A stretch of 64,000 nucleotides of DNA from Chloroflexota bacterium (GTDB lineage: Bacteria > Chloroflexota > Dehalococcoidia > SM23-28-2 > RBG-16-64-32): NCBI GenBank assembly GCA_036732045.1, contig DAINDD010000005.1:11710-75709 (forward strand), written 5' to 3'. Both the position numbers and the translations under genes were made by a program. Of this stretch, positions 6,792 through 57,500 are shown piece after piece; position 1 is the stretch's first letter, and every line of letters begins with the position of its first letter. The notes under the pieces are model-generated. The model had not been told where the DNA came from and ran no database searches. It saw only the letters and a program-made list of their open reading frames with translations.

Positions 6792-6900
6792 TCCGCTCCG
6801 TTTTCCGGCAGCCCAATTGGACTGTGCACGCTCCGACTAAGGTACCTTTAGCGTACAACAGTCCTCGTGAGATATCGCGGCTTGGGCGACCTTCTCGAGG

Positions 6901-39656: not shown

Positions 39657-41234
39657 ATGGAAGTCCCGCTGCTAGTAAACGATTTTCTGCGTAGGGCGGC
39701 GAAGCTCTACCCGGAGAAGATCGCGATCGTGGACGGCGCACGGCGCTTCACCTACCGCGAGTACCAACAGCGCGTTAACCAACTCGGCCACGCGCTTCTA
39801 TCGCTGGGGATCGAGCCGGGCGACCGCGTCTGCATCCTGAGCCCGAACTCTCACTTCTTCCTCGAGGCGTACTACGGCGTCACGCAGATCGGCGCGATCC
39901 TTGTGCCGCTGAACTACCGCCTGACCGCCGCCGACCATGAGTACATCATCAATCACGCCGGCGTGAAGGCCGTGCTTGTCGATCACGAGTACACCGCGCT
40001 CGTGGACGGGATCAGGCCGCAGCTGCGGTCCGTCGAACACTGGATCGTCGGAGGCGACGACATCGAAGCGCCAGCCGGCTGGCGCTCCTGGGAGCAGCTG
40101 ATCGGGGAGTGCCCGGCAACCCCAACGCGACCCGTTGAGCAGGACGAGAACGATGTCACTTCGATCAACTACACGTCCGGCACCACCGCGCGTCCCAAGG
40201 GCGTAATGCTGACGCATCGCAACTGCTACATCAACGCCTACAACTTCATCGCGCATCTGGAGATCCGTCACGACGACGTCGAGCTGTGGACGCTGCCGAT
40301 GTTCCACGCCAACGGCTGGGGCGGGCCGTTCGCGCTGACAGCGATGGGCGCGACACACGTCGTCTTGCGCGCAGTGCAAGCGGACGACATCCACCGTCTG
40401 ATTGAGGAGGAGGGCGTCACGTTCGGCTGCATGGCGCCGGCCGTCCTCAGCACTATCCTCAACTACGAGAAGCACGCCCAGCACAACTTCCGCACCCGGC
40501 CGCGGTTCGTCGTCGCCGGTGCGCCGCCGCCGGCCGCCTTCATCAAGCGGCTGGAGGAAGAGCTGGGCTGGCAGTTCCTCCAAATCTACGGCCTGACCGA
40601 GACAGCGCCTATCCTCACCGTGTCCACCCCGGACTACTACACCGCGCCGGACGACTACGCCCGCCGCGCCCGCGCCGGTGTAGAGGCGATCGGCGTCGAC
40701 GTGCAGGTGCTGGACGACGCCGGGAAGCCGGGGCCGCAGGACAACACGACGATCGGCGAGGTCTGCGCGCGGTCGAACGTCGTTCTGAAGGGCTATTGGA
40801 AGCAGCCGGAGGAGACGGCCGCCACAATCTACGACGGCTACTTTCACAGCGGCGACCTGGCGGTCTGGGACGAGCATGGCAACATCCATATCGTCGACCG
40901 CAAGAAGGACGTCATCATCTCCGGCGGCGAGAACATAAGCTCACCCGAGATCGAGGATGCGCTCTACAAGCACCCCGCCGTGCTGGAGTGCGCCGTGATC
41001 GGCGTGCCGAGCGAGAAATGGGGCGAGACACCGAAGGCGCTGATCGTCCTGCGAGCAGGTGCGACTGCCGATGAGGAAGAGATCATCGTCTTCACCCGGG
41101 AACACCTGGCCCACTTCAAATGCCCGACGTCGGTCGAGTTCGTGGAGTCGCTACCACGAACGGCGACGGGCAAGCTGCAGAAGTACGTGATCCGCGAGGC
41201 TTACTGGCAAGGAGTCGAGCGCCGCGTCGGCTGA
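39657..41234 (+). CDS. AMP-dependent acyl-CoA synthetase/ligase
   Basis: 525 aa; TSGTTARPKGV AMP-binding motif, GDLAVWDEHGNIHIVDRKKDVIISGGENI. Confidence 0.9.
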   Translation: MEVPLLVNDFLRRAAKLYPEKIAIVDGARRFTYREYQQRVNQLGHALLSLGIEPGDRVCILSPNSHFFLEAYYGVTQIGAILVPLNYRLTAADHEYIINHAGVKAVLVDHEYTALVDGIRPQLRSVEHWIVGGDDIEAPAGWRSWEQLIGECPATPTRPVEQDENDVTSINYTSGTTARPKGVMLTHRNCYINAYNFIAHLEIRHDDVELWTLPMFHANGWGGPFALTAMGATHVVLRAVQADDIHRLIEEEGVTFGCMAPAVLSTILNYEKHAQHNFRTRPRFVVAGAPPPAAFIKRLEEELGWQFLQIYGLTETAPILTVSTPDYYTAPDDYARRARAGVEAIGVDVQVLDDAGKPGPQDNTTIGEVCARSNVVLKGYWKQPEETAATIYDGYFHSGDLAVWDEHGNIHIVDRKKDVIISGGENISSPEIEDALYKHPAVLECAVIGVPSEKWGETPKALIVLRAGATADEEEIIVFTREHLAHFKCPTSVEFVESLPRTATGKLQKYVIREAYWQGVERRVG

Positions 41235-41240
41235 GCTGCC

Positions 41241-42011
41241 TCACTGATCGGTAGTGATGCCACCGTCGACCGGGATCACGGCCCCGGTCAGGTATGCGCC
41301 CGCGCGCGATGACAGGTAGATCGCCGCACCGGCCATGTCCTCCGGCCGGCCGACCCGCCCGAGCGGACACTGACCGACAATCGCGTCCCCGAAGCGCTGC
41401 AGTGTCTCGTGCATCATCTTGCTTTCGAACGGCCCAGGCGCGATCGCGTTCACCGTAATCCGCTCCGCCGCGAACTTGCGGGACAAAACGCGCGTCATGT
41501 GCAGCACAGCCGCCTTGCTCGCCGAGTAGGCGTACGTGTCGAGGAAAGGCGCCTTGATGCCGTCGATCGAGCCGATGTTGATTACGCGCGCCGGGTCGTC
41601 GTCGCTGGCAGCCTTGCGCAGCAGTTGACGCAGGAAGCGAGTCAGGTGGAAGACGCCCTTCACGTTGAGCGCGAACACGCGGTCGAAAGCTGCGTCCGGG
41701 TACTCATCGAGAGGAGCGCCCCAGTTGTTGCCGGCGTTGTTTACCAGGATGTGCAGCCGCTCCTCTCGCTTGCCGATCTCGTCCGCGAGCTCCCTGCAGC
41801 CGGCCTCGGTACTGAGGTCGGCGGGGATTGCGATGCAGGTCCCGGACTTCGACAAGTCCTTGGCAACGCCCTCGATGACGTCCGCTTTGCGAGAGGAGAC
41901 GTAGGTCTTCGCGCCGGCCTCGACGAACCCCTGGGCGATCATGAGGCCGATGCCCTGCCCGCCGCCTGTAACGACGGCCACTTTGTCCCGAACGGAGAAG
42001 AGGTCTTGCAT
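41241..42011 (-). CDS. SDR family oxidoreductase
   Basis: MQDLFSVRDKVAVVTGGGQGIGLMIA; start refined to ATG 42011. Confidence 0.85.
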   Translation of the reverse strand: MQDLFSVRDKVAVVTGGGQGIGLMIAQGFVEAGAKTYVSSRKADVIEGVAKDLSKSGTCIAIPADLSTEAGCRELADEIGKREERLHILVNNAGNNWGAPLDEYPDAAFDRVFALNVKGVFHLTRFLRQLLRKAASDDDPARVINIGSIDGIKAPFLDTYAYSASKAAVLHMTRVLSRKFAAERITVNAIAPGPFESKMMHETLQRFGDAIVGQCPLGRVGRPEDMAGAAIYLSSRAGAYLTGAVIPVDGGITTDQ

Positions 42012-42031
42012 AGTCGGTCCTTTCTGGCGCT

Positions 42032-43462
42032 TCAATCGTCTGCGATGAAGACTGTCTTGTATTCGGAGTAGTCGACCAGCGCGGCCGTCCCGTGCTCGCG
42101 GCCGATGCCGGACTGCTTGACGCCGCCGAACGGCGCCTCGATGTGCACGGAGCTCGATGAGTTGATCGAGAGCACACCGGTCTCGACGCTGCGAGCCACC
42201 CGCAACGCTCGCCCGACATCGCGCGTCCAGATTGAGCCGGAGAGGCCGTAGATCGAGTCGTTGGCCAGCCGGACGGCCTCATCCTCGCCCTCGAAGGCGA
42301 CGATTGCGACGACCGGGCCGAAGATCTCCTCGCGCATGATGCGCATCTCCGGCCGCACGTCCACGAAGACGGTCGGCGTCAGGTAGTTCCCCGGCGAGTC
42401 GGGCCGCTCGCCTCCGCAGACTCGCCGCGCACCCTCCGACTCACCGATCGCGACGTAGGCCTCGACCTTCTCGCGGTGTTCGGGCGTGATCAGCGGGCCG
42501 ACCTCCGTCGACTCATCCGCGGTGTCGCCGATGCGGAGTGACTTGGCGCGGGCGGCGAAGCGCTCGACGAACTCGTCGAAGACCGCGCGCTCGACCAGCA
42601 CGCGGCTGCGAGCGCAGCAGTCCTGGCCGGCGTTATCGTAGACTGCCCAGACGGACGACTCGACGCACTTCTCCAGTTCGGCGTCGGCGAAGACGATCGA
42701 CGCCGACTTGCCGCCGAGCTCCAGCGAGACGCGCTTGATGGCCGCGCCGGCTGCTTGCATGATGTGCGCGCCGACTTCTGTGGACCCGGTGAACGATATC
42801 TTGCGCACGAGCGGGTGCTGGATCAGCGCCTCGCCAGCCTCCGAGCCCTTGCCCGGCACGATGTTGAGGACGCCCGGCGGCAGGCCTGCCTCTGTGGCGA
42901 GCTCAGCCATAGCCAGCGCGGTGAGCGGTGTCACCTCCGCCGGCTTGACGACGACGGAGTTGCCGATCGCCAACGCCGGCGCGACTTTCCAGGAGAGGAT
43001 CGCCATCGGGAAGTTCCACGGTGTGATCGCCGCACAGACACCGATCGGCTCGCGGAAGGTGAGGAGGGTGCCAGCGGCCTGGCAGGGCACGGTCTCGCCG
43101 CCGAACTTGTCGACGGCGCCCGCGTAGTAGTCGAAGCTCGCCGCGACCGCGCCGATCTCCCCGCGCGCGGCGCTGATGGGCTTGCCCGCGTTCTGCGACT
43201 CCAACTGCGCGAGCCGCTCCGTGTCGCGCCGGACGAGATCAGCGATGCGGCGTAGCACGTCTCGCCGTTCACGGACGGGCGCGCGACGCCAGACGCCGGC
43301 CTGGTAACGCTCGTGCGCCAGCGCGACTGCGCCATCAACGTCAGCGGCCGAGGCCCGCGCGACCCGCGCGATCTCGCTGCCGTTGGCCGGGTTGCGGACC
43401 GAGGTCTCGCTGCCGCCGGACTCGACGTGCCCGCCGCCGATGTAGAGGCCGTGGGTGGTCAC
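42032..43462 (-). CDS. aldehyde dehydrogenase family protein
   Basis: 476 aa; ELGGKSA and catalytic Cys region GQDCCA. Confidence 0.9.
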   Translation of the reverse strand: MTTHGLYIGGGHVESGGSETSVRNPANGSEIARVARASAADVDGAVALAHERYQAGVWRRAPVRERRDVLRRIADLVRRDTERLAQLESQNAGKPISAARGEIGAVAASFDYYAGAVDKFGGETVPCQAAGTLLTFREPIGVCAAITPWNFPMAILSWKVAPALAIGNSVVVKPAEVTPLTALAMAELATEAGLPPGVLNIVPGKGSEAGEALIQHPLVRKISFTGSTEVGAHIMQAAGAAIKRVSLELGGKSASIVFADAELEKCVESSVWAVYDNAGQDCCARSRVLVERAVFDEFVERFAARAKSLRIGDTADESTEVGPLITPEHREKVEAYVAIGESEGARRVCGGERPDSPGNYLTPTVFVDVRPEMRIMREEIFGPVVAIVAFEGEDEAVRLANDSIYGLSGSIWTRDVGRALRVARSVETGVLSINSSSSVHIEAPFGGVKQSGIGREHGTAALVDYSEYKTVFIADD

Positions 43463-43875
43463 GCCGTGCCGCCTCCCGTGCGAAGGACCTGCTCTGTCTC
43501 CTTGTGTACCTGGAGCACCTTGGCATAACCGTCTTCCATCTGTTTAACGATCGACTTCACCGTTGATCGCTTCGATATTGCGTAGAACCCTGACATCGTC
43601 CACGGCCTTTCCATCATCACGTGCTTAGCAAGATCGTTCAGACGGTCTAGCAGCGCGAAATGTGTCGAGCAACGCTCGTTCCATGCTTCTAGAACCAAGG
43701 TCAGAGCCGGGACCGCTCTGTCGCGATCTAGATCTATCCCTTCGCGATAATCGGCCTCGGTTGGTTGCCGTATTTGGAAATCACATTCCTTTGCTTCCAA
43801 GGTGACGTTAGACAGCGCCATCATGCCCCAGTCCAAGACGACCCTATCGCCAAGCAATTCTTGAATGGGCAGCAA
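43459..43875 (-). CDS. hypothetical protein (lower-GC patch)
   Basis: 138 aa; stop overlaps the ALDH start; no recognisable motifs. Confidence 0.4.
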   Translation of the reverse strand: MLPIQELLGDRVVLDWGMMALSNVTLEAKECDFQIRQPTEADYREGIDLDRDRAVPALTLVLEAWNERCSTHFALLDRLNDLAKHVMMERPWTMSGFYAISKRSTVKSIVKQMEDGYAKVLQVHKETEQVLRTGGGTA

Positions 43876-44221
43876 AACAATCTATCGGTAGGGACTCGAA
43901 CTGAGAGCCGAGAAATTCCGGAATCTGCTTTGGCGCAAGCACGCTATCGTGCGCGATTTGTCTTACAGTTCGAATCATGAAACTAGCTATTTGGTAATTC
44001 TGCAGGTGGACACTGAGCAGAATGCTAAGTGAGTCGTGAAACTTCTGAATTCCGTCTGTCAAGAACCGTTGAGTAGCCAGCTCCGACTGCCTTTGTTGGC
44101 GATATACCCATAGACCCAGGAGTACGGCGATCATCGGGCCGAGCAAAATAGCACCGGCAGCAAGAAGGTCTGCATCAATTCCGAACAGCGACCGTGTCGG
44201 CAGATCGGTTTGCGGATTCAT
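43844..44221 (-). CDS. hypothetical membrane protein (lower-GC patch)
   Basis: 125 aa with one N-terminal TM (LLAAGAILLGPMIAVLLGLWVY); overlaps the upstream SDR stop. Confidence 0.4.
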   Translation of the reverse strand: MNPQTDLPTRSLFGIDADLLAAGAILLGPMIAVLLGLWVYRQQRQSELATQRFLTDGIQKFHDSLSILLSVHLQNYQIASFMIRTVRQIAHDSVLAPKQIPEFLGSQFESLPIDCFAAHSRIAWR

Positions 44222-44994
44222 TCCGGCGTCACGTAAGCGGCCGTGATGCCGCCGTCGATGATGAACTGCGCGCCGGTCATGAACGACGACTCGTCCGAGG
44301 CGAGGTAGAGCGCGGCCTTCGCGATCTCCTTCGCCTCTCCGAAGCGGCCGATCGGGATGTGTACGAGGCGACGCTGCAGCTTCTCCTCCGTGTTGAGGAA
44401 CTTCATCAGCAGCTCGGTCTTTAGCGGGCCCGGACAGAGCGCGTTGATGCGAATGTTCTCGCGGGCGTGGACGATCGCCAGCTCGCGCGTCATCGAGAGG
44501 ACTGCGCCCTTGGAGGCGGTGTAGGCGACCTGCGCCGTCGCCGAGCCCATTACGGCGACGATGGAGGCGGTGTTGATGATCGAGCCGCCGCCGGCGCGAC
44601 GGATGGCGGGGATGCCGTACTTGCAGCCGAGGAAGACGCCCTTGGCGTTGATCTCCATCGTCAGGTCCCAGACGGCCTCCGTGGTGTTCGTGGCCTCGTC
44701 GTCGTCGGAATGCATGATGCCGGCGTTGTTGAACAGCACGTGGAGCTTGCCGTACTCCGACTCTGCGAAGTCGATCATCGCCTTGCAGTCCTCGGCCTTG
44801 GTGACGTCGGCGTGGAAGGCTGTCGCCTTGCCGTCGGCCCGCTCGACCATGACGACGGTCTGGCGAGCGGTGTTCTCGTCCAGGTCAACGGCGACCACCT
44901 CGGCACCCTCCGTCGCGAAGAGAATGGCGCTTTCCCGGCCGATGCCGCTGCCGGCGCCGGTGATCAGCGCGACTTTTCCGTCCAATCGTCCCAT
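44218..44994 (-). CDS. SDR family oxidoreductase
   Basis: GKVALITGAGSGIGRESA. Confidence 0.85.
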   Translation of the reverse strand: MGRLDGKVALITGAGSGIGRESAILFATEGAEVVAVDLDENTARQTVVMVERADGKATAFHADVTKAEDCKAMIDFAESEYGKLHVLFNNAGIMHSDDDEATNTTEAVWDLTMEINAKGVFLGCKYGIPAIRRAGGGSIINTASIVAVMGSATAQVAYTASKGAVLSMTRELAIVHARENIRINALCPGPLKTELLMKFLNTEEKLQRRLVHIPIGRFGEAKEIAKAALYLASDESSFMTGAQFIIDGGITAAYVTPE

Positions 44995-45085
44995 GTGTCC
45001 TCCGGTCGTTCGATTCCCGCCGCCGTAGCCGAGGCTTTCCGGCCTCGGTCCTGGCCTGGAGAGGCCCGGTTACGGGAATGGCGGC

Positions 45086-46480
45086 CTATATCCTCTCGAA
45101 GTAGCGCCAGCGCTCCCAGTCCGTGACGGCGCGGTCGTAGGAGGCCTGCTCGTCGTGGAAAAAGTGGGCGTAGTGCTCCTGCACGTCCCCGCCGAATGCC
45201 TGCCGCACGAAATCGCTCGACTCGAACAGCGCGAGCGCGTCGCGCAGGGTGGCCGGCACGCGCGGGAGGCCGGCCGCCTCGTAGACGTCGCCGACGAAGA
45301 CGGGTGGCGGCTCGATCTTCTTCGCGATGCCGTCGAGGCCGGCGGCCAGCACGGCGGCGTAGGCGAGGTACGGATTGCAGTCGGCGCCGGGGATGCGGCA
45401 CTCGATGCGGAGCGACTTTCCCTCGCCGACGACGCGGAAGCCGGCGGTGCGATTGTCGTAGCTCCAGGCGATGCCGGTTGGCGCCCAGGAGCCGGGCAGG
45501 TAGCGCTTGTAGGAGTTGATCGTCGGGGCGAAGAAGACCATTAGCTCCGGCGCGTGGGCCATCCAGCCGCCGAGGAACCAGCGGAAGTCGTCCGAGCATT
45601 GCACCGGCCCGAACGCCTGCGAGCCCGGGAAGACACTGTCGTCGCCGCGCCAGAGACTCAGGTGCACATGGCAGCTGGAGCCCGCCTGGTCCGCGAACGG
45701 CTTGGCCATGAACGTGATGCTACAGCCCAGGCCCTCCGCGATCTCCTTCATGCCCAGCTTCATCACGGAGTGCCGGTCGGCCATCGTCAGGACGCCGGCG
45801 TAGCGGATGTTCATCTCGTGCTGGCCGCGGCCCCACTCGCCTTTCGAGTTCTCGACGGGGATGCCTGACGCGGCGAGGTGGCGGCGGACTGCGCCGTTGT
45901 AGCGCTCCTCGCGGGTGCCCTGGAGGAGGTGGTAATCCTCGACGTACCAGCCGGCGGGAGTAAGGTCGTCGTAGCGCTTCGCCGCCGCGGCTTTGTACGT
46001 GTCGTCGAAGAGGTAGTACTCCAGCTCCGAGGCCGCTTTCGCCGTGTAGCCCTCCTCCGTCGCGCAGTCGAGCTGCCGGCGCAAGATCGAGCGCGGGGCG
46101 ACGGTGACGAGCTCGTGCGTCATTGTATCGTGCAAGTCACAGAGGACAAACGCCGTGCGGTCCAGCCAGGAGACCGTGCGCAATGTCGAGAGGTCGGGTG
46201 CCATGTGGAAGTCGCCGTAGCCCTGCTCCCAGCTGGCGTAGCGGTAGCCGGGAACCGGGTTCATCTCCATGTCCACCGTCAGCAGGTAGTCGCAGGCATG
46301 AGAGCCTGTCGCGTGCACCTCATCGACGAAGAAGCCGGCGTCGAACCGCTTTCCGTGCAGGCGGCCGTAGTGGTCCGTGAAGGCGACGACGACCGTATCG
46401 ACGGCGCCGCTCTCCACCTGGGCGCGCAACTCTTCGAGCGTCAGCATTCCACGTGTCATGGGATGCTCCCGATTATCCAC
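45086..46480 (-). CDS. glutamine synthetase family protein (GlnA3/PuuA-like gamma-glutamyl ligase)
   Basis: 464 aa with GS catalytic domain motifs (…KPFADQAGSSCHVHLSLW…). Confidence 0.85.
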   Translation of the reverse strand: MDNREHPMTRGMLTLEELRAQVESGAVDTVVVAFTDHYGRLHGKRFDAGFFVDEVHATGSHACDYLLTVDMEMNPVPGYRYASWEQGYGDFHMAPDLSTLRTVSWLDRTAFVLCDLHDTMTHELVTVAPRSILRRQLDCATEEGYTAKAASELEYYLFDDTYKAAAAKRYDDLTPAGWYVEDYHLLQGTREERYNGAVRRHLAASGIPVENSKGEWGRGQHEMNIRYAGVLTMADRHSVMKLGMKEIAEGLGCSITFMAKPFADQAGSSCHVHLSLWRGDDSVFPGSQAFGPVQCSDDFRWFLGGWMAHAPELMVFFAPTINSYKRYLPGSWAPTGIAWSYDNRTAGFRVVGEGKSLRIECRIPGADCNPYLAYAAVLAAGLDGIAKKIEPPPVFVGDVYEAAGLPRVPATLRDALALFESSDFVRQAFGGDVQEHYAHFFHDEQASYDRAVTDWERWRYFERI

Positions 46481-46534
46481 AAACGGGGCGCGCGCGGGAA
46501 GCTCGCAGCAGACGGAAGAGCGTTCTCGGGCGCG

Positions 46535-47323
46535 TCAATAGGAGCGGCACACCGGCCATGGGGAGAGCGCGTCCCCGGCGGTCAGGGCTGGTAAGTACTC
46601 TTGCTGGTAGGCGACCGTAGCGTTCGTCAGGGGATCGTCCCAACCAGGGAACTGGTAGCTGATCTGGAACAGGCCCCAGTAGCCCGCCGGGTTGACTGAG
46701 GCCGGGTTCAATCCTGATTCGCATGCAGCTATCCGTACCATTTGATCGCAGGGCCAGGACAGCGAGCAGATCGCGGCGACCACGTCGCTGGATGCCGGCG
46801 GCACGTACGGCGTGGCAGCCGGCGGTGGCGCAGCAGTGATCGCCGCCGGAGTGGGTTGCGCGACCGGCACGACGTCTGAGGCAGGGTCCGGTAGTGGAAG
46901 TTCAGTGGCCGGAGCGGGTGGGAGCGCGAAAGCGGCTGCCGGCACCGGGATCGACAGCACCTGGCCGATCTGCAGGAAGTCGTCGACGCTGACTCCGTTC
47001 GCGGCGGCGATGTCGAAGGGCGTTACGCCGAACCAACCGGCGAGCTCTAACAGCGTCTCTCCGGGGCGGACTTCCATAGTCGGCAGTGGTTCTGGCGTGG
47101 GCGTCGGCAACGGGCTCGGCGTTGGCTGGGCTGTCGGAGGGACGGTGGTCTCGGCTTGAGGCAACTCAAGGTTACGCAGCGACTCAGCGCGGTGCGGGGA
47201 GAGGGCGGCGGTCGTGAGCGCGGCCGCAACCAGGGTCTGGGGCGAATCATGCCCGCCGTCCTGCTTTGCCGGAGCTGACAGAGCGGGAACGATCAGCACG
47301 GCTGCCAGCGCGAGGCAAATCAC
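46535..47323 (-). CDS. secreted LysM domain protein with Rpf-like transglycosylase-like C-terminal domain
   Basis: GTG start, signal peptide, PT-rich region, LysM (RPGETLLELAGWFGVTPFDIAAANGVSVDDFLQIGQVLSIP), and C-terminal ACESGLNP...GYWGLFQI resembling the Rpf/transglycosylase-like motif. Confidence 0.7.
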   Translation of the reverse strand: MICLALAAVLIVPALSAPAKQDGGHDSPQTLVAAALTTAALSPHRAESLRNLELPQAETTVPPTAQPTPSPLPTPTPEPLPTMEVRPGETLLELAGWFGVTPFDIAAANGVSVDDFLQIGQVLSIPVPAAAFALPPAPATELPLPDPASDVVPVAQPTPAAITAAPPPAATPYVPPASSDVVAAICSLSWPCDQMVRIAACESGLNPASVNPAGYWGLFQISYQFPGWDDPLTNATVAYQQEYLPALTAGDALSPWPVCRSY

Positions 47324-47453
47324 GAGTACGTGTCTAACTATCAGTCATTCCCCCCTGCTATTCCGTGGAGTCCTGTACGTCCCGCTGCGGAAGCCCAGCG
47401 CTCGGACGCAGGCACCGGGAACAAGTCTGCCAGCATTGGCCGAGTTTGACAAA

Positions 47454-47496
47454 TCGCTAACGGCGAACGGGAGCGGGGGCGAATTAGCGTTGCCTC
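47454..47496 (+). repeat. direct repeat copy A (left boundary of lower-GC insert)
   Basis: TCGCTAACGGCGAACGGGAGCGGGGGCGAATTAGCGTTGCCTC; ~93% identical to copy B at 50441..50481. Confidence 0.7.
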
Positions 47497-47872
47497 GTCG
47501 ATCCGTTAGGATGATGGTAAGTGCGCCGGGAGAGGCGGAAGGGAAAGTGAGTAAAACTGGGATTTCGTTTGGTAATTTCGTGTTTTTAGGAGTACGGAGT
47601 AATTCCGGAAGTAGACCGTATGGCGACGTCGATTTATATCTGGAAGGCGAGGATGGTCTTCAGCGCTTGACCGATTATAATTGCACTTTTGTGCTCAAAA
47701 GCTGGAGATTATGTTTAGTGAATTCCTGCTTGCCAGCGCGTCACCCAGTGCTTCTTGACGTTCCGTTATGGTGGCCCGATTGTAGGGGCCTCAATCGCCC
47801 TTCGCCAAGGTTGCACCAACTCTTCGCAAAGGTAGAATCAACAAGCCGGACACCACGTTTCGAGGGGGAACT

Positions 47873-50118
47873 ATGACCATTACTGTTTTCAAACAAGCCA
47901 ACTACGACGTCAATGGCCTCGTGACGTTGATCGGAATGGGGCAAATCGGACTTCCCGACATCCAGCGACCGTTCGTCTGGAACAACATCAAGGTCCGGGA
48001 TCTGTTCGATTCGATGTACAAGGGTTATCCGGTCGGCTATCTGCTCCTTTGGCAGAACGCGCTCACGGAGGACGCGAAGCAAATCGGTGTGGACGAAAGA
48101 CAGCGCGTGCCCAGCCTTTTGATCGTGGACGGGCAACAGCGCTTGACTTCGCTCTACGCGGTGGTGAGGGGAATCAAAGTCCTCCGCGAGAACTTCACGG
48201 CGGAGCAGATTGGCATCGCGTTCAACCCGCTTCTCGAGAAGTTTGAGGTAGTCGACGCCGCTATTCGGCGAGACAAGTCGTACATCCCCAACATCTCTGC
48301 TGCGTGGAGTCCGAAACCGGGCCTAGTTCCTTTCGTCAACGAGTACATCGCAGCGCTGAAGGCGACACGCGAAGTTTCCGAGGAAGATGAGCAGCGGATC
48401 AATGACTCCATCACCCGCCTTCACGGGCTGCAAAACTTCCCGTTCACTGCGCTCGAATTGGCATCCAATATCAGCGAAGAGGACGTGGCGGATGTATTCG
48501 TCCGCATCAACAGCAAAGGGACTCCGCTCAACCAGGCGGACTTCCTGCTTACTTTGATGTCAGTGTTCTGGGATGAAGGCCGGGCGGGGCTTGAAACATT
48601 CTGCCGGCAAGCGAAAGCGCCCGGCACGGGACCGTCGCCTTACACGCACTTCGTTACTCCTGCACCCGACCAGCTACTCCGCGTGGCTGTCTCGTTGGGG
48701 TTCAAGCGCGCGCGACTAAGCAATGTGTACTCGATCCTTCGCGGCAAGGATCTCGAAACCGGAGAGTTCACGGCTGAGAGACGGGACCAGCAGTTTGCAG
48801 TGCTGAAACAAGCGCAGACGCGGGTCCTAAATCTGACGTACTGGCACGACTTCTTCAAGGCGATCATGCTATCGGGACACCGGAGTTCAAAAACGATCAG
48901 CTCGCAAACGGGGTTGATCTACGCTTACGCGTTTTATCTGATAGGACGATGCGAGTACGGCGTGGAAGAGCACCGGCTCCGGCGAGCGATCGCACGCTGG
49001 TTCTTCATGTCGAGCTTGACGGCGCGATACTCGAGTTCGCCAGAGTCCGCGATGGAATTTGATCTGGCGCGCTTGCGGGAAGTGAAGGACGCCGAAGCAT
49101 TCGTCCGGGCCCTCGACCGCGTGTGCGACGAATCTCTTACCAGCGACTTCTGGTCGATCACGCTGCCAAACGAATTGGCGACCTCGTCTCCAAGGAGCCC
49201 GTCGCTGTTCGCGTTCTACGCAGCGTTAGTGCTGCTGGACGCTAAAGTGCTCTTCTCACCCTCAAAGTTAGTGACCTGTTGGACCCCGCTTTGCATGGCA
49301 ACCGCGCAGCGATCGAGCGTCACCACCTGTTCCCGAAGGGATACCTCAAGAGCATCGGCATAACCGAGCTTCGCGAGACCAACCAGATTGCCAACTTCGC
49401 ACTCGTAGAGTGGGGGGACAACGCCGACGTGTCGGATAGGGCACCGGCGGACTACCTACCCGAGTACCGCGACAAACTTGGCCCGAAAGAGCTTCAAAAG
49501 ATGTACGGCTGGCATGGGCTTCCCGACGGTTGGGAAACCATGGCGTACCCGGACTTTCTGATGAGGCGCCGTGACCTTATCGCCGGGATCATCAAGGAAG
49601 GTTTCGCGCGGCTTAGCGGAGAAGTACCAACAGACGGTCAAATTATTCTAAGCCTGGACGAGATTGTCGGGAACGGTGAAACAAGTCGCGTGGAGTTCAA
49701 GGCGACTCTCCGGACAAATCTGCACACCCAACAAATCGACCCTAAGATGGAACTGGCAACCTTGAAAACCCTGGCTGCCTTTCTGAACACTAGCGGGGGA
49801 ACCTTGATTATCGGTGTGTCCGACCACGGTGCCCCCCTTGGGCTAAACGCTGACGGATTTCAAAACGAGGACAAGATGCAACTGCATCTGGCAAACCTAA
49901 TCAACGGCCGGATCGGGCCCCACTACATGATGTACATGCATCCGCGATTCGAGGACTATCAAGGCAAACGAGTAATCGCAGTGGAATGTTCGCCAAGTAA
50001 GTCGGCCGTATTCGTCAAGGATGGCAACGCAGACCGGTTCTACATTCGCACCGGTGTTTCGACTTCTGAACTGACTAACGCCCAAACGCAAGAGTTCATC
50101 AAGCAACGGTTCAGCTAG
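47873..50118 (+). pseudogene. GmrSD-like type IV restriction-family protein (DUF262 + DUF1524) fused to C-terminal AlbA_2/Schlafen-like domain; disrupted by a frameshift near 49245-49280
   Basis: N-terminal DUF262/ParB-like DGQQR motif (LLIVDGQQRLTSLYAV). After the frame change, DUF1524 His-Me finger motifs (AAIERHHLFPKGYL ... NQIANFALVEWGDNADVS), then AlbA_2 motifs (GETSRVEFKATL ... LAAFLNTSGGTLIIGVSD ... RFYIRTGVSTSEL). Listed as two ORFs (47873..49363 frame 2; 49279..50118 frame 1). Confidence 0.7.
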
Positions 50119-50392
50119 CGCGGCAGACATCGATCAGAATGATATGAGCTAGGTCAATCGTGGAACCGCGAAGCGCCTGTCGCTGCTAGTCCGCCGTCGA
50201 GCAAACGTCCAGGCCGGGTCCCTCTTCGACTCGGCTACCCTCCGGGGTGGGCAAGCAGGGCTGGCGCCCTACCCCACCAAAGGGCGCGGGAACCGCGCGA
50301 CGCGGCCAGGGCGCTGCGAGCCGGAGTGCGGCAAGCCAGCGCGCCTACCAGCCGCCGGAGCGCTAGGGGCGCTGAGCGTCGGTCATCGAGCG

Positions 50393-50440
50393 CACGGTGC
50401 TGATCGCCACCCACGACGACTCCATCGCCCGCCAGGCAGT
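50393..50440 (+). other. duplicated 3'-end fragment of the ABC ATPase gene (copy of 52671..52718)
   Basis: GCACGGTGCTGATCGCCACCCACGACGACTCCATCGCCCGCCAGGCAG matches the authentic gene end (…RTVLIATHDDSIARQA…) with 2 mismatches, then diverges directly into repeat copy B. Confidence 0.7.
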
Positions 50441-50481
50441 CGCCAACGGCGAACGGGAGCGGGCGAATTAGCGTCGCCTCA
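50441..50481 (+). repeat. direct repeat copy B (right boundary of lower-GC insert)
   Basis: TCGCCAACGGCGAACGGGAGCGGGCGAATTAGCGTCGCCTC. Confidence 0.7.
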
Positions 50482-50562
50482 CCCCTCTCTAACGTTCTCT
50501 TAAGCTGCGCCTCCTAGCCTGTCATCAGCCCCATACTCTACGAGGAGAGGTGCCATATAGAT

Positions 50563-52029
50563 ATGAGAACGATGAAACGCAGCGTTAGAGCGCTGATCCG
50601 AAGTCCCTTGCGTGCGGCGCTGATGGTGGGCGTCCTCGCCGTCAGCATCGGGCTGGCACTGATCATGATCACGGTGAACGGTGCTTTCGCGCAGCGCCTG
50701 GACGACGTGCGGGCCCAGGTCGGCACGGAGATCACGGTACGGCCGGCGGGCAGCTTCGGCGGCGGCTTCTTCGGCGGCGACAATGGCGGCGGCGCAAGCC
50801 CCACGGCAACCCCCGCGCCCGGCAGCAGCACCGCCGCGACAGCGGATCCGATCATCACGGATGCCGACCTGCAACAGTTGACCACCATCCCGCACGTGGC
50901 GAGCATCACTCGCGTGATCACGACGCGGTACAGCGGCACCAACCTCGTGTCCGGCATTACTTTTGGCGGAGGAGCGAACGCGACACCGCGGCCGGGTCGG
51001 GGCAACGGCGGCGGCGGCCGTGGCGGCATCCTGGTGACGGGTACGGACGACCCGAACACGCTGGCGTCAGTCGGTGTGCAGGACGTCACGCTGTCCTCCG
51101 GTCGCTCTTTCACGGCCGCCGATGAGGGGACCGACGTTGCGGTCGTCGGGCAGACGCTGGCCACGGCGAACAACTTGAGCGTCGGCAGCACGTTCGTCCT
51201 CGATCCAACGAGCACGACGACAACCAGCACCACGACGAACAGCACTACCGCCGCGACAACGTCCGGCACCACGATGACGGTGATCGGCATCTACACAACC
51301 GGCACGCAGTTCGGCGACAACTCAATGGCGCTGCCGATCGACACAGCTCGCACCATCTTTAGCCGGTCGAACGAGGTTGACCAGGCGATCGTCAAGGCCG
51401 ACAGCGTCGACAACGTCGACGCTGTCAGCACGGCGATCAAGTCCAGCCTTGGCACCGACAAGGCTGACGTCACGACCGCGCTGTCCACATTCTCCACGAT
51501 CAGCTCGCCGCTCTCCGATGCGCAGAGCAGCAGCCAGATCGGGATGATCGTAGCGCTAATCGCGTCCGCAGCGATCATCCTCTTCTCGATCGGGCTTGTG
51601 GCACGGCAGCGGGTCCGCGAGATCGGGATCATGAAGGCGGTCGGCGCTTCCAGCTGGAACGTGATCGGTCAGTTCGGGATCGAAACGGGCATCATGAGCA
51701 TCGGCGCCGCACTTCTGGGTGCTTTGGCAACGTTCCCGCTCGCGCAGACCGTCGCCAACGGGCTCGTTTCCAGCCCTTCGACGGCTGTTGGAGGCCGCGG
51801 CGGCGCGGCCGCCGGAGTGGCGGGTCGCGGCGGCGGAAGATTCTTCGCGGCGGCCGGAAACGCAGCGGGCGGAGCGAACGGTCTGCTCGGCAGCGTCAAC
51901 GTTGCGGTTTCGCCGGAGGTCTTCCTTTACGCGCTGGCGATTGCTGTCGGCCTCGCGCTGGTTGCGACAATCGTGCCTGTCTGGTATGTCGGTCGCGTGC
52001 GGCCAGCGGAGGTGCTGCGCCATGAGTGA
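50563..52029 (+). CDS. ABC transporter permease, MacB/FtsX family
   Basis: 488 aa; N-terminal TM, large Thr/Gly-rich periplasmic domain, C-terminal FtsX 3-TM bundle (IGIMKAVGASSWNVIGQF). Confidence 0.8.
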   Translation: MRTMKRSVRALIRSPLRAALMVGVLAVSIGLALIMITVNGAFAQRLDDVRAQVGTEITVRPAGSFGGGFFGGDNGGGASPTATPAPGSSTAATADPIITDADLQQLTTIPHVASITRVITTRYSGTNLVSGITFGGGANATPRPGRGNGGGGRGGILVTGTDDPNTLASVGVQDVTLSSGRSFTAADEGTDVAVVGQTLATANNLSVGSTFVLDPTSTTTTSTTTNSTTAATTSGTTMTVIGIYTTGTQFGDNSMALPIDTARTIFSRSNEVDQAIVKADSVDNVDAVSTAIKSSLGTDKADVTTALSTFSTISSPLSDAQSSSQIGMIVALIASAAIILFSIGLVARQRVREIGIMKAVGASSWNVIGQFGIETGIMSIGAALLGALATFPLAQTVANGLVSSPSTAVGGRGGAAAGVAGRGGGRFFAAAGNAAGGANGLLGSVNVAVSPEVFLYALAIAVGLALVATIVPVWYVGRVRPAEVLRHE

Positions 52030-52768
52030 TCAGATTACGAACGAAGTAACCGCAGGCCCGCCGACGGTCAACGGCACGACCTTCACGGCGGTGGTCGAGA
52101 ACCTGAAGAAACACTTCAAGAGCGGGCCCGCCGAAGTGCCGGCGGTGGACGGCGTCAGCTTCAAGCTCCCGGCGGGCGAACTGATCGTCCTGCGCGGGCC
52201 CAGCGGCTGTGGCAAGAGCACGCTGCTCAACTTGCTCGGCGCGCTGGACAAGCCGGACTCTGGCACGGTGATGGTGGGTGGGGTCGACGTGGGCAAGCTC
52301 AGCGGCGGCGCGGAGGTGGACTATCGCAGGCGGAAGGTTGGCTTCGTGTTCCAGATGTTCAACCTGATGCCGCAGCTCTCGGCCCTCGAAAACGTAATGC
52401 TGCCGCTGGAGCTGGCCGGCGGCAAGTCCACGAAAACGATGCGCGCGCGCGCCGAGGCACTTCTCGGCCGGGTCGGGCTGGCAACGGACCGCTGGGTCAG
52501 GCGCCCGGCGAAGCTGTCCGGCGGCGAGCAGCAGCGTGTCGCCATAGCCCGCGCGCTGGCCAACGATTGCCCGCTGATTCTGGCCGACGAGCCGACGGCG
52601 AACCTGGACTCGAAGACCGGTGCTGTGATCGTGGAGCTGTTGCGAAGCCTGGCGGCCGAGAACCGCACGGTGCTGATCGCCACTCACGATGACTCCATCG
52701 CCCGCCAGGCAGATGAGGTGATGGACATGCGGGACGGCCGCTTCGTGGGGGCGGGCGCGCCGGTATAG
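52022..52768 (+). CDS. ABC transporter ATP-binding protein (MacB/LolD-type)
   Basis: Start MSDQITNEV (ATG 52022) overlaps the permease stop; Walker [10 protein letters not shown], signature [15 protein letters not shown], Walker B LILADEPT. Confidence 0.9.
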   Translation: MSDQITNEVTAGPPTVNGTTFTAVVENLKKHFKSGPAEVPAVDGVSFKLPAGELIVLRGPSGCGKSTLLNLLGALDKPDSGTVMVGGVDVGKLSGGAEVDYRRRKVGFVFQMFNLMPQLSALENVMLPLELAGGKSTKTMRARAEALLGRVGLATDRWVRRPAKLSGGEQQRVAIARALANDCPLILADEPTANLDSKTGAVIVELLRSLAAENRTVLIATHDDSIARQADEVMDMRDGRFVGAGAPV

Positions 52769-52929
52769 ACGAATCTCACAATCGAACGAATCACCGGTGT
52801 TTCCGCCGGCGATTCCTGTTTCGCACCGGCGAGTATTGTCGGGTGCCAAAATTGCATCCGTCATGTTCCGCATCATGAGGCCAATCGTGCGCATTCATAG
52901 TGTAAGCCACCAAGGGCTGGCCCACCGAC

Positions 52930-53250
52930 GATCCGTCCAGTCGCTAACAATCCGAGGCCAATGACTGTCCCGTTTGCAGGCGTCAGTTGCAGCGGGCGAT
53001 GGGGCCGCGCGCGATTATAGTGCTCGACGTACTCCCGCAGCACTGCCCGCAGATGGTGCTCGTTAAGTGATGATCAGGAGGTCCAAACACTCTCTGCGCA
53101 GTGTGCCGACGACGCACTCGCCGATGGCGTTCGCCTTCGGCGAGTGCACGGGGTGAGGATTGTCTCGATGCCGATCTGAGCGGCCCGTGGATGAAATTGC
53201 CCTCATAGCACAGACTCAAGTTTCAGACTCAGACGTAATTTTGGCACCCA
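52930..53250 (-). pseudogene. decayed IS (DDE integrase-core, IS481/IS3-like) transposase remnant
   Basis: Minus-strand frames give ...[58 protein letters not shown]. This resembles the conserved rve C-terminus (…P.sNG..ER…L.RE…Y…YN..RPH..L…P) but is broken by in-frame stops and frame changes. Recognition is from memory of family consensus. Confidence 0.45.
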
Positions 53251-53450
53251 CAGGCTCTCGAACTGCTTTACCACGGCGGCGAGGTTCGTGTGACCTTTGG
53301 CATCTCTTCCCAGCGCATGATCCCGCTCCCTTGCGCCGCGCGTCCAATGGGTGTGAGGTGCGCGTGACGCGGCTGTTGACCGGACTGTGACGCTTGGAAA
53401 GAGTCCTCTTAACTAGTATCTTTTTGCCGGGCCAACTGACCGTGTACGGG

Positions 53451-53527
53451 TTTGGTCGGGGCGCTCGGATTCGAACCGAGGACCTCCTGAACCCCATTCA
53501 GGTGCGCTACCGGGCTACGCCACGCCC
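53451..53527 (-). tRNA. tRNA-Pro (anticodon GGG)
   Basis: CGGGGCG-TG-GCGT..GCGC-A-CCTGA-ATGGGGT-TCAGG-AGGTC-CTCGG-TTCGAAT-CCGAG-CGCCCCG-A-CCA. Canonical cloverleaf, U33, G37, encoded CCA. Confidence 0.85.
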
Positions 53528-53601
53528 CGACCGGAGGACTCGGATATCGTACCACGCCCGGAAATCGGTCGGCCAGCAGATCGGGTCGGCTGCGCGCGCG
53601 G

Positions 53602-54429
53602 CTAGTACGTGTGAGAAAGGGCGATGATGACGACGCCGGCCACGGCGACGAGGGCGAACTCGCTGGCCGTCTTGTGGCTGAGGCGGCGCGCCAGGTAGTT
53701 ATGCATGAGGCCCGTCATCAGGTAGAAGGCCAGCAGCAGAAAGACGGCGGCGGCGCGTTCGTCCAGCGGCAGGAAGTGGGCCGTCCAGGCAGCCTCGCCC
53801 AGCAGGACGCCGATCGCCAGCGAATAGAGGATCGTCCGCGTCGAGTCCATGCCTTCTTCGCGCAGGACTTCGATCGCCAGCAGAACGCTGACGATGCCGG
53901 CGGCGAACGACGCGGTGAAGAGGCTGAGGTCGAAGTCGTAGATCGTCGCGAAAAAGAGGAAGGCTATTACGTAGGTCGCGCCGTTTAGGATCAGGCGAGT
54001 CAGCTGGTAATTCGGCGACGTGCGGTCGACGGACTCGTACTCGGCGCGGAGGATTGCCCAGAAGGGAACGACGGAGAGCAGGCCCGCGGCCGCCGACCAG
54101 TATCCGCTGGCCATCTCGTTGAGGAATATGCCGACACTCAGCATGAAAAGCACTGGCACAAACAGGTAGAGTGCGGTGTCGTCCAAGCGCTCGAAAGCGG
54201 CGTCGGGGTGGTGGCGGACGATAGCGTCGGTGCCAAACGCAGCTAGCGCAGTAAGGAGAAGGAGGAGCCAGTTCTGAGTGGGCTGTACGGTCAGGTAGAG
54301 GGTGAGGCCCAACGCAAGCACGACGGCCAGGACATGGATCCTGTCCAGCCGGTTCGAAATCTCCCCCAGAGTAAGCGGCGTCCGCTGCGCGATTCGCGCC
54401 TCAGCGCGGACCCGGGTGAATTGCTTCAC
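53602..54429 (-). CDS. polytopic membrane protein of unknown function
   Basis: 275 aa with ~7 predicted hydrophobic helices; no catalytic motif recognised. Confidence 0.6.
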   Translation of the reverse strand: MKQFTRVRAEARIAQRTPLTLGEISNRLDRIHVLAVVLALGLTLYLTVQPTQNWLLLLLTALAAFGTDAIVRHHPDAAFERLDDTALYLFVPVLFMLSVGIFLNEMASGYWSAAAGLLSVVPFWAILRAEYESVDRTSPNYQLTRLILNGATYVIAFLFFATIYDFDLSLFTASFAAGIVSVLLAIEVLREEGMDSTRTILYSLAIGVLLGEAAWTAHFLPLDERAAAVFLLLAFYLMTGLMHNYLARRLSHKTASEFALVAVAGVVIIALSHTY

Positions 54430-54523
54430 GGGGAAACAGGCTAACCGTGTCCCGGAAGGCTGTCAACCGCTCGATATCCGATTACGATACCTGCGGGCGT
54501 GAGCATTTGTGAGATTGTGATCC

Positions 54524-57500
54524 CTACGTCCCCTGACCGGCCGAGCCCGCCGCGACCGGCTCGTCAGCGGCTTTGGCGTTTGCCACCTGCTCCAAACTAC
54601 GTCTTAACCTCTCGCGCCAGCCCTCCGTCAGTTCCACTCGCAGCGAATGGCGGGTCAGCTGGACGCCGCGCGGCACCGCGCCCTCCAGCACATCGAGAGG
54701 CAGCGCTTCGCCCTCGCGCATGCGGATGACGGCGGCGCCGTCATCCGTCGTGATCGACTGCACGCCGATAAGCCTGGCCATAGCACGCAAAACGACGACG
54801 TACATCAGGTTGCGCGCCACGGGCGGCGGTTCGCCGAGCCGGTCGACCATCTCCTGGCCGATGTCCGCGACGGCCTCTGGATCGGCGGCGGCGCTCAGGC
54901 GCTGGTAGAGGGCGAGGCGGGTGTTCAGGTCCGGGACGTAGGACGTGGGCAAGTGCGCCGAGATCGGCAGGTCGATCGTCACGCCCGGCCCTTCGCTCTC
55001 GGGCGCTGGCGTCTCACCCCGCATCAGCGCGCGGTAGCGCTCGACGGCGTTGGCCAGCAGCTTCACGTAGAGGTCGAAGCCGATCGCCGACATGTAGCCG
55101 GACTGCTCGCCGCCCAGGAGGTTGCCGGCCCCACGGATCTCCAGGTCGCGCAGGGCAATCTGGAACCCTGCGCCCAGCTCCGTCGCCTCGAAGATCGTCT
55201 GCAGGCGCATGCGTGCGGTGTCGGTGAGGCGACCCTTCTTCTCGTGCAGGAGGTAAGCGTAGGCGCGGTTCGCCCCGCGCCCGACGCGGCCGCGGAGCTG
55301 GTAGAGCTGCGCGAGGCCCAGCTTGTCAGCCTGGTTGATGATGATCGTGTTCACGTTCGGGATGTCGAGGCCGGACTCGATGATCGTCGTGCAGACGAGC
55401 ACGTCGAGCTTGCCCTGCGTGAACTCGTCCATCGCCCGGGCCAGCATGTGCTCGTCCATCTGGCCGTGGCCGATCCCGATCTGCGCGTCGGGCACGATGT
55501 CCCGCACCTTGCTCGCGATGAGGTCGATGTTGTGCACGCGGTTATGCACGAAGTAGACCTGGCCGCCGCGCTCCAGCTCGCGGACGATCGCGTCGCGGAC
55601 GGTGCGTTCTTCGAACTCCGACACGTAGGTCTTGATCGGCAGGCGCTCTTCCGGCGGCGTCTCCATCGTCGACATGTCGCGAATGCCGCCCAGTGACATG
55701 TAAAGCGTGCGCGGGATCGGTGTCGCGGAAAGCGTAAGCACGTCGACCTCGCGGCGCATGTGCTTGAGGAACTCCTTGTGCGCGACGCCGAAGCGCTGCT
55801 CTTCGTCGATGACGACGAGGCCGAGCTCCTTGAAGCGGATGTCCTTCTGCAGCAGGCGGTGCGTGCCGATGATGATGTCGATTCCGCCCGTCGCCAGGTT
55901 TTCGACGATCTGCTTCTGCTCCGTGTCGCTGCGGAAGCGGGAGATGACGTCGACGCGCGCCGGAAAAGCGCCCAGACGCTCGCGAAAGGTGTTGTAGTGC
56001 TGCTGAGCGAGGACGGTCGTTGGTACGAGGATGGCGACCTGCTTGCCGTCCATCACGGCCTTGAACGCGGCGCGGATGGCGACCTCGGTCTTACCGTAGC
56101 CGACGTCTCCGCAGACGAGCCGGTCCATCGGCCGCGGCGTTTCCATGTCCCGCTTGACAGCGCTGATCGCGGCCAGCTGGTCCGGCGTCTCGACGTACGG
56201 GAACGAGCCTTCGAGCTCGGCCTGCCAGGCGGTGTCCGGGGGGTAGGCGTAGCCGGGCATAGCCTCGCGGGCGGCATATAGTGCGAGCAGGTCTTTGGCG
56301 AGTTGCTGCACGGCCTTGCGCACGCGCTGCTTGGCGCGCTGCCACTCGCCGCTGCTGAGCCTGGTCGGCGAGGGCGCGCGGTCGGATGGGCCGATGTAGC
56401 GGCTGACGCGGTCGAGCTGGTCGGTCGGGACGAAGAGGCGGTCGCCTTCGGCGTAGTGAAGCTCCAGGTACTCGCGCTCGTGCCCGTCGACGGTGCGCTG
56501 GATGAGGCCGTGGAACCTGGCGATGCCGTGGTCGATGTGTACTACGTATGTGCCCGGGACAAGCTCGGCGAGGAAAGCTTCGCGGTTGACCTGCTGGCGC
56601 GGCGCGGTCCGGCGCTGCTTGATGAAGCCGAACACCTCAGCGTCGGCCAGCAGCGTGAGCGACGTGTCGCAGGCCAGCCTCCAGCCTTCGGATAGCGAGC
56701 CGTGGACAAGCGAGAGCAGCGGCGGCTCGGCCGGCAAGTGCGCCAGCACGGCGACCGGCTGGCCCTGCTCCTCGAACAGCTCGGAGAGACGGTCCGCCTG
56801 CTGCGAGACGATCACTGTGCGGTGTCCGGCGGCCAGCCCAGCGATCGCCTCGTCGACGAGCTTGCGGAGCTGTCCGCCGTACGCCGGCGCGGCCGAGAAG
56901 GGCAGCGGCACGACCTTCGTCTCGCCTTCCATCGCCCACCGCGCGAGGGTAAGCACTCGTGACGCCTTCTCGATGCAGGCCGACAGGGCGGGCCAGTCCT
57001 CGATGGGCTGCGGCAGCCCGCGCGGGATCTCGCCCTGCCCTTCCAGCTCCGCGCGGCTGGTGACCGCATCCTCCTGCGCTTCGTCGACGGCCGCCTGCAG
57101 GTCGCTCATCTCGTCGACGATGAGCAGGCCACCGGCGGGCAGGTGGTCGAGCAGCGTGGCCGGCGCGAGGAACGGCACGTAGAAGTCGCGATTGGGGAAG
57201 GCGAGGTCGCTCTGCAAATACGCGACGTCCTCCTCGAACCGCGCCCGCACCTCGTCCGAGACCTGCTTGTAGTTGAGCCCGGCGAGCAGCTCCAGAGCCG
57301 GCTGCGCGCTGGCGAGCGCGATCTCCTGCGCCGGGCCGATCTGCAATTCGTCGACCGTCTGGATCGTGCGCTGCGTGGCCGTCGAGAAGTGGCGCAGGCT
57401 CTCGATCTCGTCGCCGAAGAACTCGATCCGCAGCGGGTCGTCCGCGGTCGGAGGGAAGACATCGACGATACCGCCGCGCCGGCTGAACTCGCCCGTCAGT

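Follow-up and report, generated by a model that had tools for sequence, protein, structure and literature searches.

Several described systems bear on the locus reported here. Restriction enzymes of the GmrSD/BrxU type typically combine, in one polypeptide, an N-terminal DUF262 (ParB/Srx-like) domain with the DGQQR motif and a C-terminal DUF1524 domain, a His-Me finger nuclease; they cut modified DNA, such as that with glucosyl-hmC, and protect against phage. Among type IV (modification-dependent) restriction proteins of the GmrSD/BrxU type, AlbA_2 is one of the usual C-terminal additions in the group 3 His-Me finger proteins of GmrSD (PMC5714182), the tested representative of HEC-05 is 99.2% identical to BrxU (bioRxiv 10.1101/2024.01.29.577857), and natural two-gene GmrS/GmrD arrangements are mentioned in PMC4619093. 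This study focused on a stretch of 6.2 kb (47324 to 53527) within a window of 64,000 bp (the whole stretch of DNA that was analysed), in which a predicted gene of this type is found together with a MacB-like FtsX-ABC transporter pair, the remnant of an insertion sequence (IS) and a tRNA-Pro(GGG) gene. An earlier note, made from the letters alone, had regarded everything between a LysM gene and tRNA-Pro as acquired, and had read it as one old, decayed island at the tRNA that later picked up a defence cassette. The features it described are all present, including the LysM gene, the GmrSD_N open reading frame (ORF), the FtsX/ABC pair, the gene-poor stretch of 684 bp and tRNA-Pro(GGG), but the stretch as a whole is better understood, with a probability of about 0.75, as a mosaic of at least three unrelated events in a Chloroflexota chromosome than as one island. 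About 3.6 of the 6.2 kb is derived from mobile DNA, and this came from two unrelated events, neither of them tRNA-directed.

The source genome belongs to the Chloroflexota; the Mfd protein of the window shares 87%, 81% and 78% identity with the Mfd of Chloroflexota metagenome-assembled genomes at loci L011, L009 and L010, respectively. The nearest loci that lack the defence gene are L111 (92-94% nucleotide identity to the window) and L110 (about 90%), while L011 and L109 are two loci on one contig of 1.63 Mb (CAVTYE010000001.1), the closest long contig. For two independent contigs, overall identity to the window is 99.6% (L001) and 100% (L002). The left block of the window is colinear with its relatives from about 35 kb up to 52768. 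Mean G+C content (GC) is 0.645, and a dip to 0.48-0.59 is confined to 47400-50150. An Rfam scan of 46400-54600 matched the tRNA alone, and a promoter and terminator scan gave no signal above chance.

The edges of the insertion were revealed by L111 and L110, which are colinear with the window over 44222-47496 and again over 50440/5-52768. Their alignments run to 47495/6 and resume at 50440/5, and in a multiple alignment both show an empty site, with the divergent LysM and FtsX genes separated by one unbroken spacer of about 500 bp. The parts of the insertion and its borders are as follows.

47498-50439, plus strand: GmrSD-carrying insertion, 2,942 bp, GC 0.569, skipped by the L111 and L110 alignments
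47454-47497, no strand: left copy of motif M, 43-44 bp, TCGCTAACGGCGAACGGGAGCGGGGGCGAATTAGCGTTGCCTC, a direct repeat of 50440-50483
50119-50390, no strand: non-coding, GC-rich tail of the insertion (GC 0.695), no similarity found
50391-50439, plus strand: copy, 49 bp long, of 52664-52712, which is an internal 3' part of the ABC gene; abuts the right motif M
50440-50483, no strand: right (native-side) copy of motif M, which runs on into the native FtsX leader

The insertion is made up of an AT-richer leader of 375 bp, the gene, the GC-rich tail of 272 bp and the 49-bp ABC copy. That the GmrSD cassette was acquired, as the earlier note had held, appears secure, because it is absent from the empty sites of L111 and L110 and because GC at third codon positions (GC3) is 0.66-0.72 in its ORFs versus 0.82-0.91 in the neighbouring housekeeping genes. 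Across the stretch, only 47498-50439 is both atypical in composition and absent from relatives. The cassette entered the spacer between LysM and FtsX, not an island, and it has a 43-bp target duplication of its own. Motif M (TCGCYAACGGCGAACGGGAGCGGGCGAATTAGCGTYGCCTC), which contains short TCGCC/GGCGA inverted repeats, is present twice in the window and once in each of the two empty sites, with no further copy elsewhere in the window. The ABC fragment is identical to the resident ABC gene at 47 of 49 positions, and to the L110 orthologue at 47 of 47. No recombinase gene or remnant was found within the 2.94 kb. Searches (blastn and tblastx) with the 272-bp tail, the 375-bp leader and the 684-bp junction against all fetched loci gave noise only, and the tail also showed no similarity to the rest of the window by either program. 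Wherever independent contigs span the insertion they are 100% identical to it, and the LysM-GmrSD-FtsX arrangement is reproduced in contigs L019-L024.

A duplication followed by replacement would leave such scars, and so would one event of template switching, or of end-joining with filler DNA; tRNA-directed integration would not. A tandem duplication of the segment from motif M to 52712 would explain why the ABC fragment is fused exactly to the start of the right repeat. Integration of the att type accounts for the repeat of motif M, but not for the ABC fragment.

The gene carried by the insertion is predicted to be a type IV restriction gene of the BrxU/GmrSD kind, with AlbA_2 as its C-terminal domain, an architecture that has already been described (PMC5714182). 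It is split in two, as follows.

47873-49363, plus strand: ORF A of the split gene, GmrSD_N (DUF262) and linker (Pfam GmrSD_N, E=1.5e-29)
49259-49261, plus strand: frameshift, 1 nt missing between LFS and LKVSDLL in a short C run (frame analysis, homologue alignment)
49261-50118, plus strand: C-terminal part in the -1 frame, with a His-Me finger-like motif (ERHHLFP...NQIAN) and Schlafen/AlbA_2 (Pfam SLFN_AlbA_2, E=2e-19)

ORF A carries the motifs RDLFDS and DGQQR (VDGQQRLTSL), and the best PADLOC match for the N-terminus was HEC-05 (BrxU-like; E=6e-31). Its native reading frame extends only to about residue 462. The homologues read LFS-x-x-KV at the point where the window has LFS, two bases and then LKVSDLL in the -1 frame, and the downstream ORF that encodes SLFN_AlbA_2 (49279-50118) overlaps ORF A. 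When the two parts are joined, the conceptual fusion of 747 aa is colinear over 100% of its length with homologues of 749-752 aa, and a conserved block of the nuclease region, AIERHHLFPKGYL...TNQIANFALVEWGDN, aligns across them. DUF1524 was not matched by Pfam, even at E<=5, in the nuclease region of the window or of the intact homologue P0001. The fusion matches thousands of single-chain proteins of about 750 aa with GmrSD_N and AlbA_2, from many phyla, mostly at 62-66% identity and at best 72%, and among the matches listed all homologues (120/120) are single proteins of 747-778 aa. This is the pattern typically shown by a horizontally mobile defence gene.

The frameshift is not a sequencing error, since an identical truncated product of 496 aa is encoded on 13 contigs (NCBI, JGI and ENA assemblies) from at least 10 separate assemblies. 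A search of 5.8 billion protein clusters brought up no intact allele of the lineage among its matches. Neither a convincing start codon nor a Shine-Dalgarno sequence was seen before the nuclease part, and gene callers picked several different starts. The split gene is probably a young pseudogene. Programmed frameshifting at 49259 was also considered, and was rejected on a reading of the sequence, in which no slippery heptamer was seen at the site.

To the right of the insertion lies the transporter pair.

50563-52029, plus strand: MacB/LolC-type FtsX permease (Pfam FtsX)
52022-52768, plus strand: ABC ATPase, LolD/MacB-like (Pfam ABC_tran, E=3.5e-35)

The two genes overlap at their start and stop codons and are translationally coupled, and NCBIfam gave LolD/MacB-like matches for the ATPase at E=4e-63 and 7e-61. 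FtsX-ABC is native, because its GC3 is that of the chromosome (0.818 and 0.872, respectively) and because it is syntenic with GlnA-like/SDR genes in five relatives. In L010, where the ABC ATPase has 80% aa identity to that of the window, FtsX-ABC begins 166 bp beyond the SDR and GlnA-like genes; the same adjacency of GlnA and FtsX-ABC is seen in L109 and L113, and in L110 and L111 only the LysM gene intervenes. Conserved gene order together with native composition was the outcome that the earlier note had named as speaking against its island, and it is the one found for FtsX-ABC, a third of the region. Of the proposal that all of the DNA between the LysM gene and tRNA-Pro was acquired, there remain the GmrSD insertion and the transposase remnant described below, and the transporter pair is removed.

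The unusual Thr/Gly-rich periplasmic domain that had been remarked upon is real, in that such linkers are present, but it does not mark the protein as foreign: the Gly-rich and Thr-rich linkers align across FtsX orthologues of 65-98% identity, with only the Thr tract varying in length, and are a clade trait. They also interrupt the periplasmic domain, which is why Pfam missed MacB_PCD, the periplasmic core domain that MacB-type permeases have between TM1 and TM2, in the window FtsX; in the 73%-identical orthologue P0132 this domain was matched at E=8e-18, and the alignment of the two proteins is colinear. Look-ups of the exact products of FtsX and ABC gave no record. A metagenome scan with the ABC protein returned nearly all distant ABC paralogues, plus two matches of 72-73% (L029, L030) with uninformative flanks. 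As a separate observation, four independent metagenome contigs of the same population end within the Gly/Thr-rich coding part of FtsX (near 51011 in L019, 50848 in L020, 50699 in L021 and 51089 in L022), and contig L001 starts at 51008, also within this zone of 50700-51090. The recurrent contig breaks and the variable Thr tract suggest that the FtsX linker is hypervariable or repeat-prone.

Between the ABC stop codon and tRNA-Pro lies the second piece of mobile DNA.

52769-53452, no strand: gene-poor junction segment, 684 bp, GC 0.582, between two conserved synteny blocks, with homology ending on both sides
52873-53210, minus strand: decayed C-terminal ~110 aa of an rve_3-type (IS3/IS481-like, InsO-like) DDE transposase (rve_3, InsO-type homologues)
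53453-53529, minus strand: tRNA-Pro(GGG), first element of the conserved DUF5656-Mfd block (ARAGORN, Rfam)

The earlier note had recognised here the C-terminus of an rve-type transposase broken by stops, and this identification is borne out. Both of the peptides it quoted lie on the minus strand of the 684-bp stretch, in two different frames, and the sequence stitched from them scored E=2.8e-10 against Pfam rve_3 and was 56-64% identical to metagenomic InsO-type transposases (best E=2e-29); a tblastn search with the remnant matched genes for 'integrase core domain-containing protein'. The remnant is without its N-terminal half, on the tRNA side, and is recognisable from about DRDxxY(G)xxF to the C-terminus, with weak similarity that may reach about 53359. 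It carries the conserved PKANA...ER...TLRRECLD...YNxxRPH signature of the rve_3 C-terminus, and has kept its natural stop at 52873-52875, with its codons spread over three frames by at least three frameshifts and with one in-frame stop. NCBIfam gave both IS3 (9e-9) and IS481 (1.3e-7), each falling well short of the cut-off, and does not separate the two families. No inverted repeat with both arms in 52769-53452 was among the 25 longest repeats of a scan of 40000-56000, and distant blastn of the junction against plasmids returned no match. The database relatives of the remnant (P0241-P0360) are nearly all short, rve_3-only ORFs of 90-190 aa, so that fragments, or a separate orfB-like product, may be the form in which this transposase lineage is mostly encountered.

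Synteny breaks precisely at the two ends of the junction. Homology ends at the ABC stop codon (52768/52773) for L110 and L109, and at the tRNA 3' end (53452/3) for L009, L010 and L011; rightwards from tRNA-Pro, L009 and L011 are colinear with the window to 64000 and L010 to about 59770. None of the sequences that follow ABC or tRNA-Pro in the relatives occurs in the window. On CAVTYE010000001 the two genes have the orientation seen in the window, with ABC (plus strand) ending near 1,174,013 and tRNA-Pro (minus strand) near 1,261,125, but they are about 87 kb apart. A cupredoxin gene follows ABC in both L010 and L109, and is missing from the window. L009 (14561-14860) and L010 (14210-14510) have in common, directly after tRNA-Pro, about 300 bp of conserved sequence and a strong hairpin of the terminator type (GAGAATCCGCC...GGCGGATTCT); this segment is missing from the window and from L011, and has no Rfam match. 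A simple inversion relating the window to L010 was rejected, the post-tRNA flank of L010 being unlike window 60-64 kb. The junction itself is 100% identical in L001 and L002.

A sequence of events that would account for these features starts with an ancestor of the lineage of the window, L110 and L111, which may have gained the LysM gene in the intergenic region between the divergent GlnA-like and FtsX-ABC genes. After the split from L111, 2.94 kb of foreign DNA of lower GC would have entered the LysM-FtsX spacer. A local tandem duplication (motif M, FtsX and ABC to 52712) may have come first, with the first copy then replaced by the foreign DNA, or a single template-switching repair event may have left the same scars; the GmrSD gene would afterwards have lost one nucleotide, and is now split. 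In the third event, an rve-type IS would have sat directly downstream of the ABC stop codon, and an IS-associated deletion or rearrangement would have removed its 5' part and joined the ABC operon to tRNA-Pro-DUF5656-Mfd, the leftover transposase fragment having decayed since.

The idea of a single island at the tRNA, with the integrase lost and the defence cassette captured later, had several observations in its favour. The region does abut the 3' end of tRNA-Pro, at 53453, this end faces left toward the accessory region, non-syntenic DNA begins at 53452, where the synteny of the relatives also breaks, and a mobile-element remnant lies next to the tRNA. The tRNA-Pro is conserved in L009, L010 and L011, and it is plausible that it serves as an integration hotspot in this clade, because L011 has a tyrosine recombinase ORF (14798-15673, on CAVTYE010000001.1) about 200 bp after the same tRNA-Pro(GGG). 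Of the Phage_integrase catalytic domain, this ORF matches just the first half, and it may be truncated, and no attR was found in L011 within the 8.9 kb examined. In the window, as the earlier note had stated, there is no integrase: neither a tyrosine or serine integrase nor a remnant of one lies beside tRNA-Pro, and the rve_3 fragment is of the IS type. A partial repeat of the tRNA-Pro 3' end, expected near 47.3 kb, was not found there or anywhere in the 64 kb, a 25-mer (up to 3 mismatches) and a 17-mer (up to 2) matching only the tRNA itself. With the left block unbroken through 47.3 kb, there is no island boundary at that point, and FtsX-ABC has tRNA-Pro nearby in none of the five relatives in which it is syntenic with GlnA/SDR. 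One island is therefore very improbable. Direct repeats of 43-44 bp are in the usual size range of att cores, and the GmrSD cassette might be a small cis-mobilisable element without an integrase, its recombinase acting in trans or lost, with motif M as attB and its two copies as attL and attR. The single copy of M in the empty sites and the inverted repeats inside M would suit this explanation, but att recombination would not be expected to join a 49-bp ABC fragment so precisely to the right repeat, the 2.94 kb holds no recombinase gene or remnant, the locus of the closest GmrSD homologue (L016) has no flanking repeats, and M does not recur in the window, so that such an element seems unlikely.

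For the right-hand junction, it could be argued that the adjacency of ABC and tRNA-Pro is ancestral, that the relatives gained islands or were rearranged, and that the IS inserted into an old spacer and decayed there with no deletion. The integrase directly after tRNA-Pro in L011 means that part of its 87 kb is probably an island, the flanks of ABC and of tRNA-Pro vary in every lineage, and in L010 the two synteny blocks (the A block and the Mfd block) are neighbours, 2.8 kb apart but inverted. Such an adjacency is, on the other hand, seen in no relative; the window lacks both the hairpin segment of L009/L010 and the cupredoxin gene of L010/L109, and the transposase is truncated on its 5' side, as expected after an adjacent deletion. 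This makes ancestral adjacency a rather doubtful alternative to joining by an IS-associated deletion. Chimeric assembly, with the frameshift as a sequencing error, would have to be feared in a source that is evidently metagenome-assembled and in which contig ends are frequent within FtsX (50700-51090) and within the tRNA, but the ABC-remnant-tRNA-DUF5656 junction is reproduced in L001 (99.6%) and L002 (100%), the LysM-GmrSD-FtsX order in L019-L024, and the truncated 496-aa ORF on all 13 contigs from NCBI, JGI and ENA, which leaves this explanation with a negligible chance. Several points nonetheless weigh against the three-event account. The searches turned up neither a donor of the cassette nor another genomic context for it, and its mode of insertion is deduced from the scars alone; the 43-bp flanking repeat also looks like an attL/attR pair made by an integrase. 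No second copy of the IS, no terminal inverted repeat and no target duplication of the IS was identified. Almost every relative has a different flank after ABC (cupredoxin for L010 and L109, TSP_3 for L110, trypsin for L112 and, for L113, an unknown gene), which makes the ancestral state beside ABC uncertain, and because an integrase sits at tRNA-Pro in L011, the 87-kb gap of that genome could be partly an island gain there rather than a loss in the lineage of the window. The two-gene GmrS/GmrD precedent mentioned in PMC4619093 means, by analogy, that the split gene may not be dead.

The remaining gene of the stretch lies at its left margin.

46535-47323, minus strand: gene for a LysM-domain secreted protein (Pfam LysM, E=3e-8)

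Its GC3 is 0.749, and it was found in the window, L110 and L111, with none between GlnA and FtsX in L010, L109 and L113. Placed between the GlnA-like gene and FtsX, it is lineage-specific, older than the recent insert and no part of it. The label Rpf, which it had been given in the earlier note, is not upheld, as no Rpf or transglycosylase family was matched by Pfam, NCBIfam or a PDB sequence search; an SLT/Rpf-like motif ('CESG...GLFQI') is visible by eye only. Further to the left, window 42369-44221 is deleted in L111, where the aldehyde dehydrogenase is cut down to a fragment of 107 aa, and 42027-44217 is also missing from L109 and L010, marking another indel-prone spot of the conserved left block.

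At the far left of the window there is a second low-GC patch (4441-5804; GC 0.54-0.56, GC3 0.57-0.62), with two ORFs, of which the first (4441-4992) has no family match and the second (4992-5804) a C-terminal SEC-C motif. Its neighbours are ValRS (1559-4330) on one side and a metallo-beta-lactamase-fold gene on the other, with tRNA-Val (6899-6974) nearby, and it is probably another small acquired insert.

The value of these results is mainly corrective, in that an apparent tRNA-linked 'island' resolves into a native transporter operon between two unrelated scraps of mobile DNA; adjacency to a tRNA together with a scrap of transposase is insufficient for calling an island. The pair of empty and filled sites shows, at base resolution, how one predicted type IV restriction gene on its own entered the chromosome of a member of the Chloroflexota and was probably inactivated soon afterwards, and entry followed by inactivation is consistent with a fast turnover of defence genes. 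It is a long shot that the scars might record an integrase-independent entry of single defence genes that is general for the GmrSD-AlbA_2 family of about 750 aa; the route, if so, would be replication template-switching, or end-joining with filler DNA, into intergenic spacers. Equally speculative, and separate from this, is that the split gene might work as a two-subunit enzyme like GmrS/GmrD.

The relationship of the locus to known systems can be stated for each of its parts. Like GmrSD/BrxU type IV restriction proteins, the product of the inserted gene has a GmrSD_N domain with RDLFDS-type and DGQQR motifs, and a long linker followed by a region with an H-H...N motif; it differs from them in being split by a deletion of 1 nt, which places the nuclease and AlbA_2 part out of frame, and in having no BREX, Dnd or Ssp partner genes nearby. 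The FtsX-type permease and LolD/MacB-like ATPase are encoded in tandem, as in MacB/LolCDE exporters, but the periplasmic domain is broken by Gly-rich and Thr-rich low-complexity linkers. The transposase remnant resembles IS3/IS481-type IS, which are a cause of adjacent deletions, in its rve_3 C-terminus and in its position at a rearrangement break point, but only about 110 codons survive, in three frames, and a complete DDE catalytic core and an N-terminal DNA-binding domain are missing. With tRNA-linked islands, which are made by integrases and flanked by a repeat of the 3' end of the tRNA, the window shares foreign or decayed mobile DNA that starts at the tRNA 3' end, a break of synteny at that point, and a relative (L011) with an integrase at the same tRNA; unlike them, it carries neither an integrase nor a direct repeat derived from the tRNA, beyond the 684 bp there is native, syntenic chromosome, and the defence cassette has an unrelated insertion site of its own. 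The BrxU/GmrSD-AlbA_2 gene, the IS remnant and the MacB-like transporter are all of known kinds, and the one mild curiosity among them is the pattern of scars left by the insertion.

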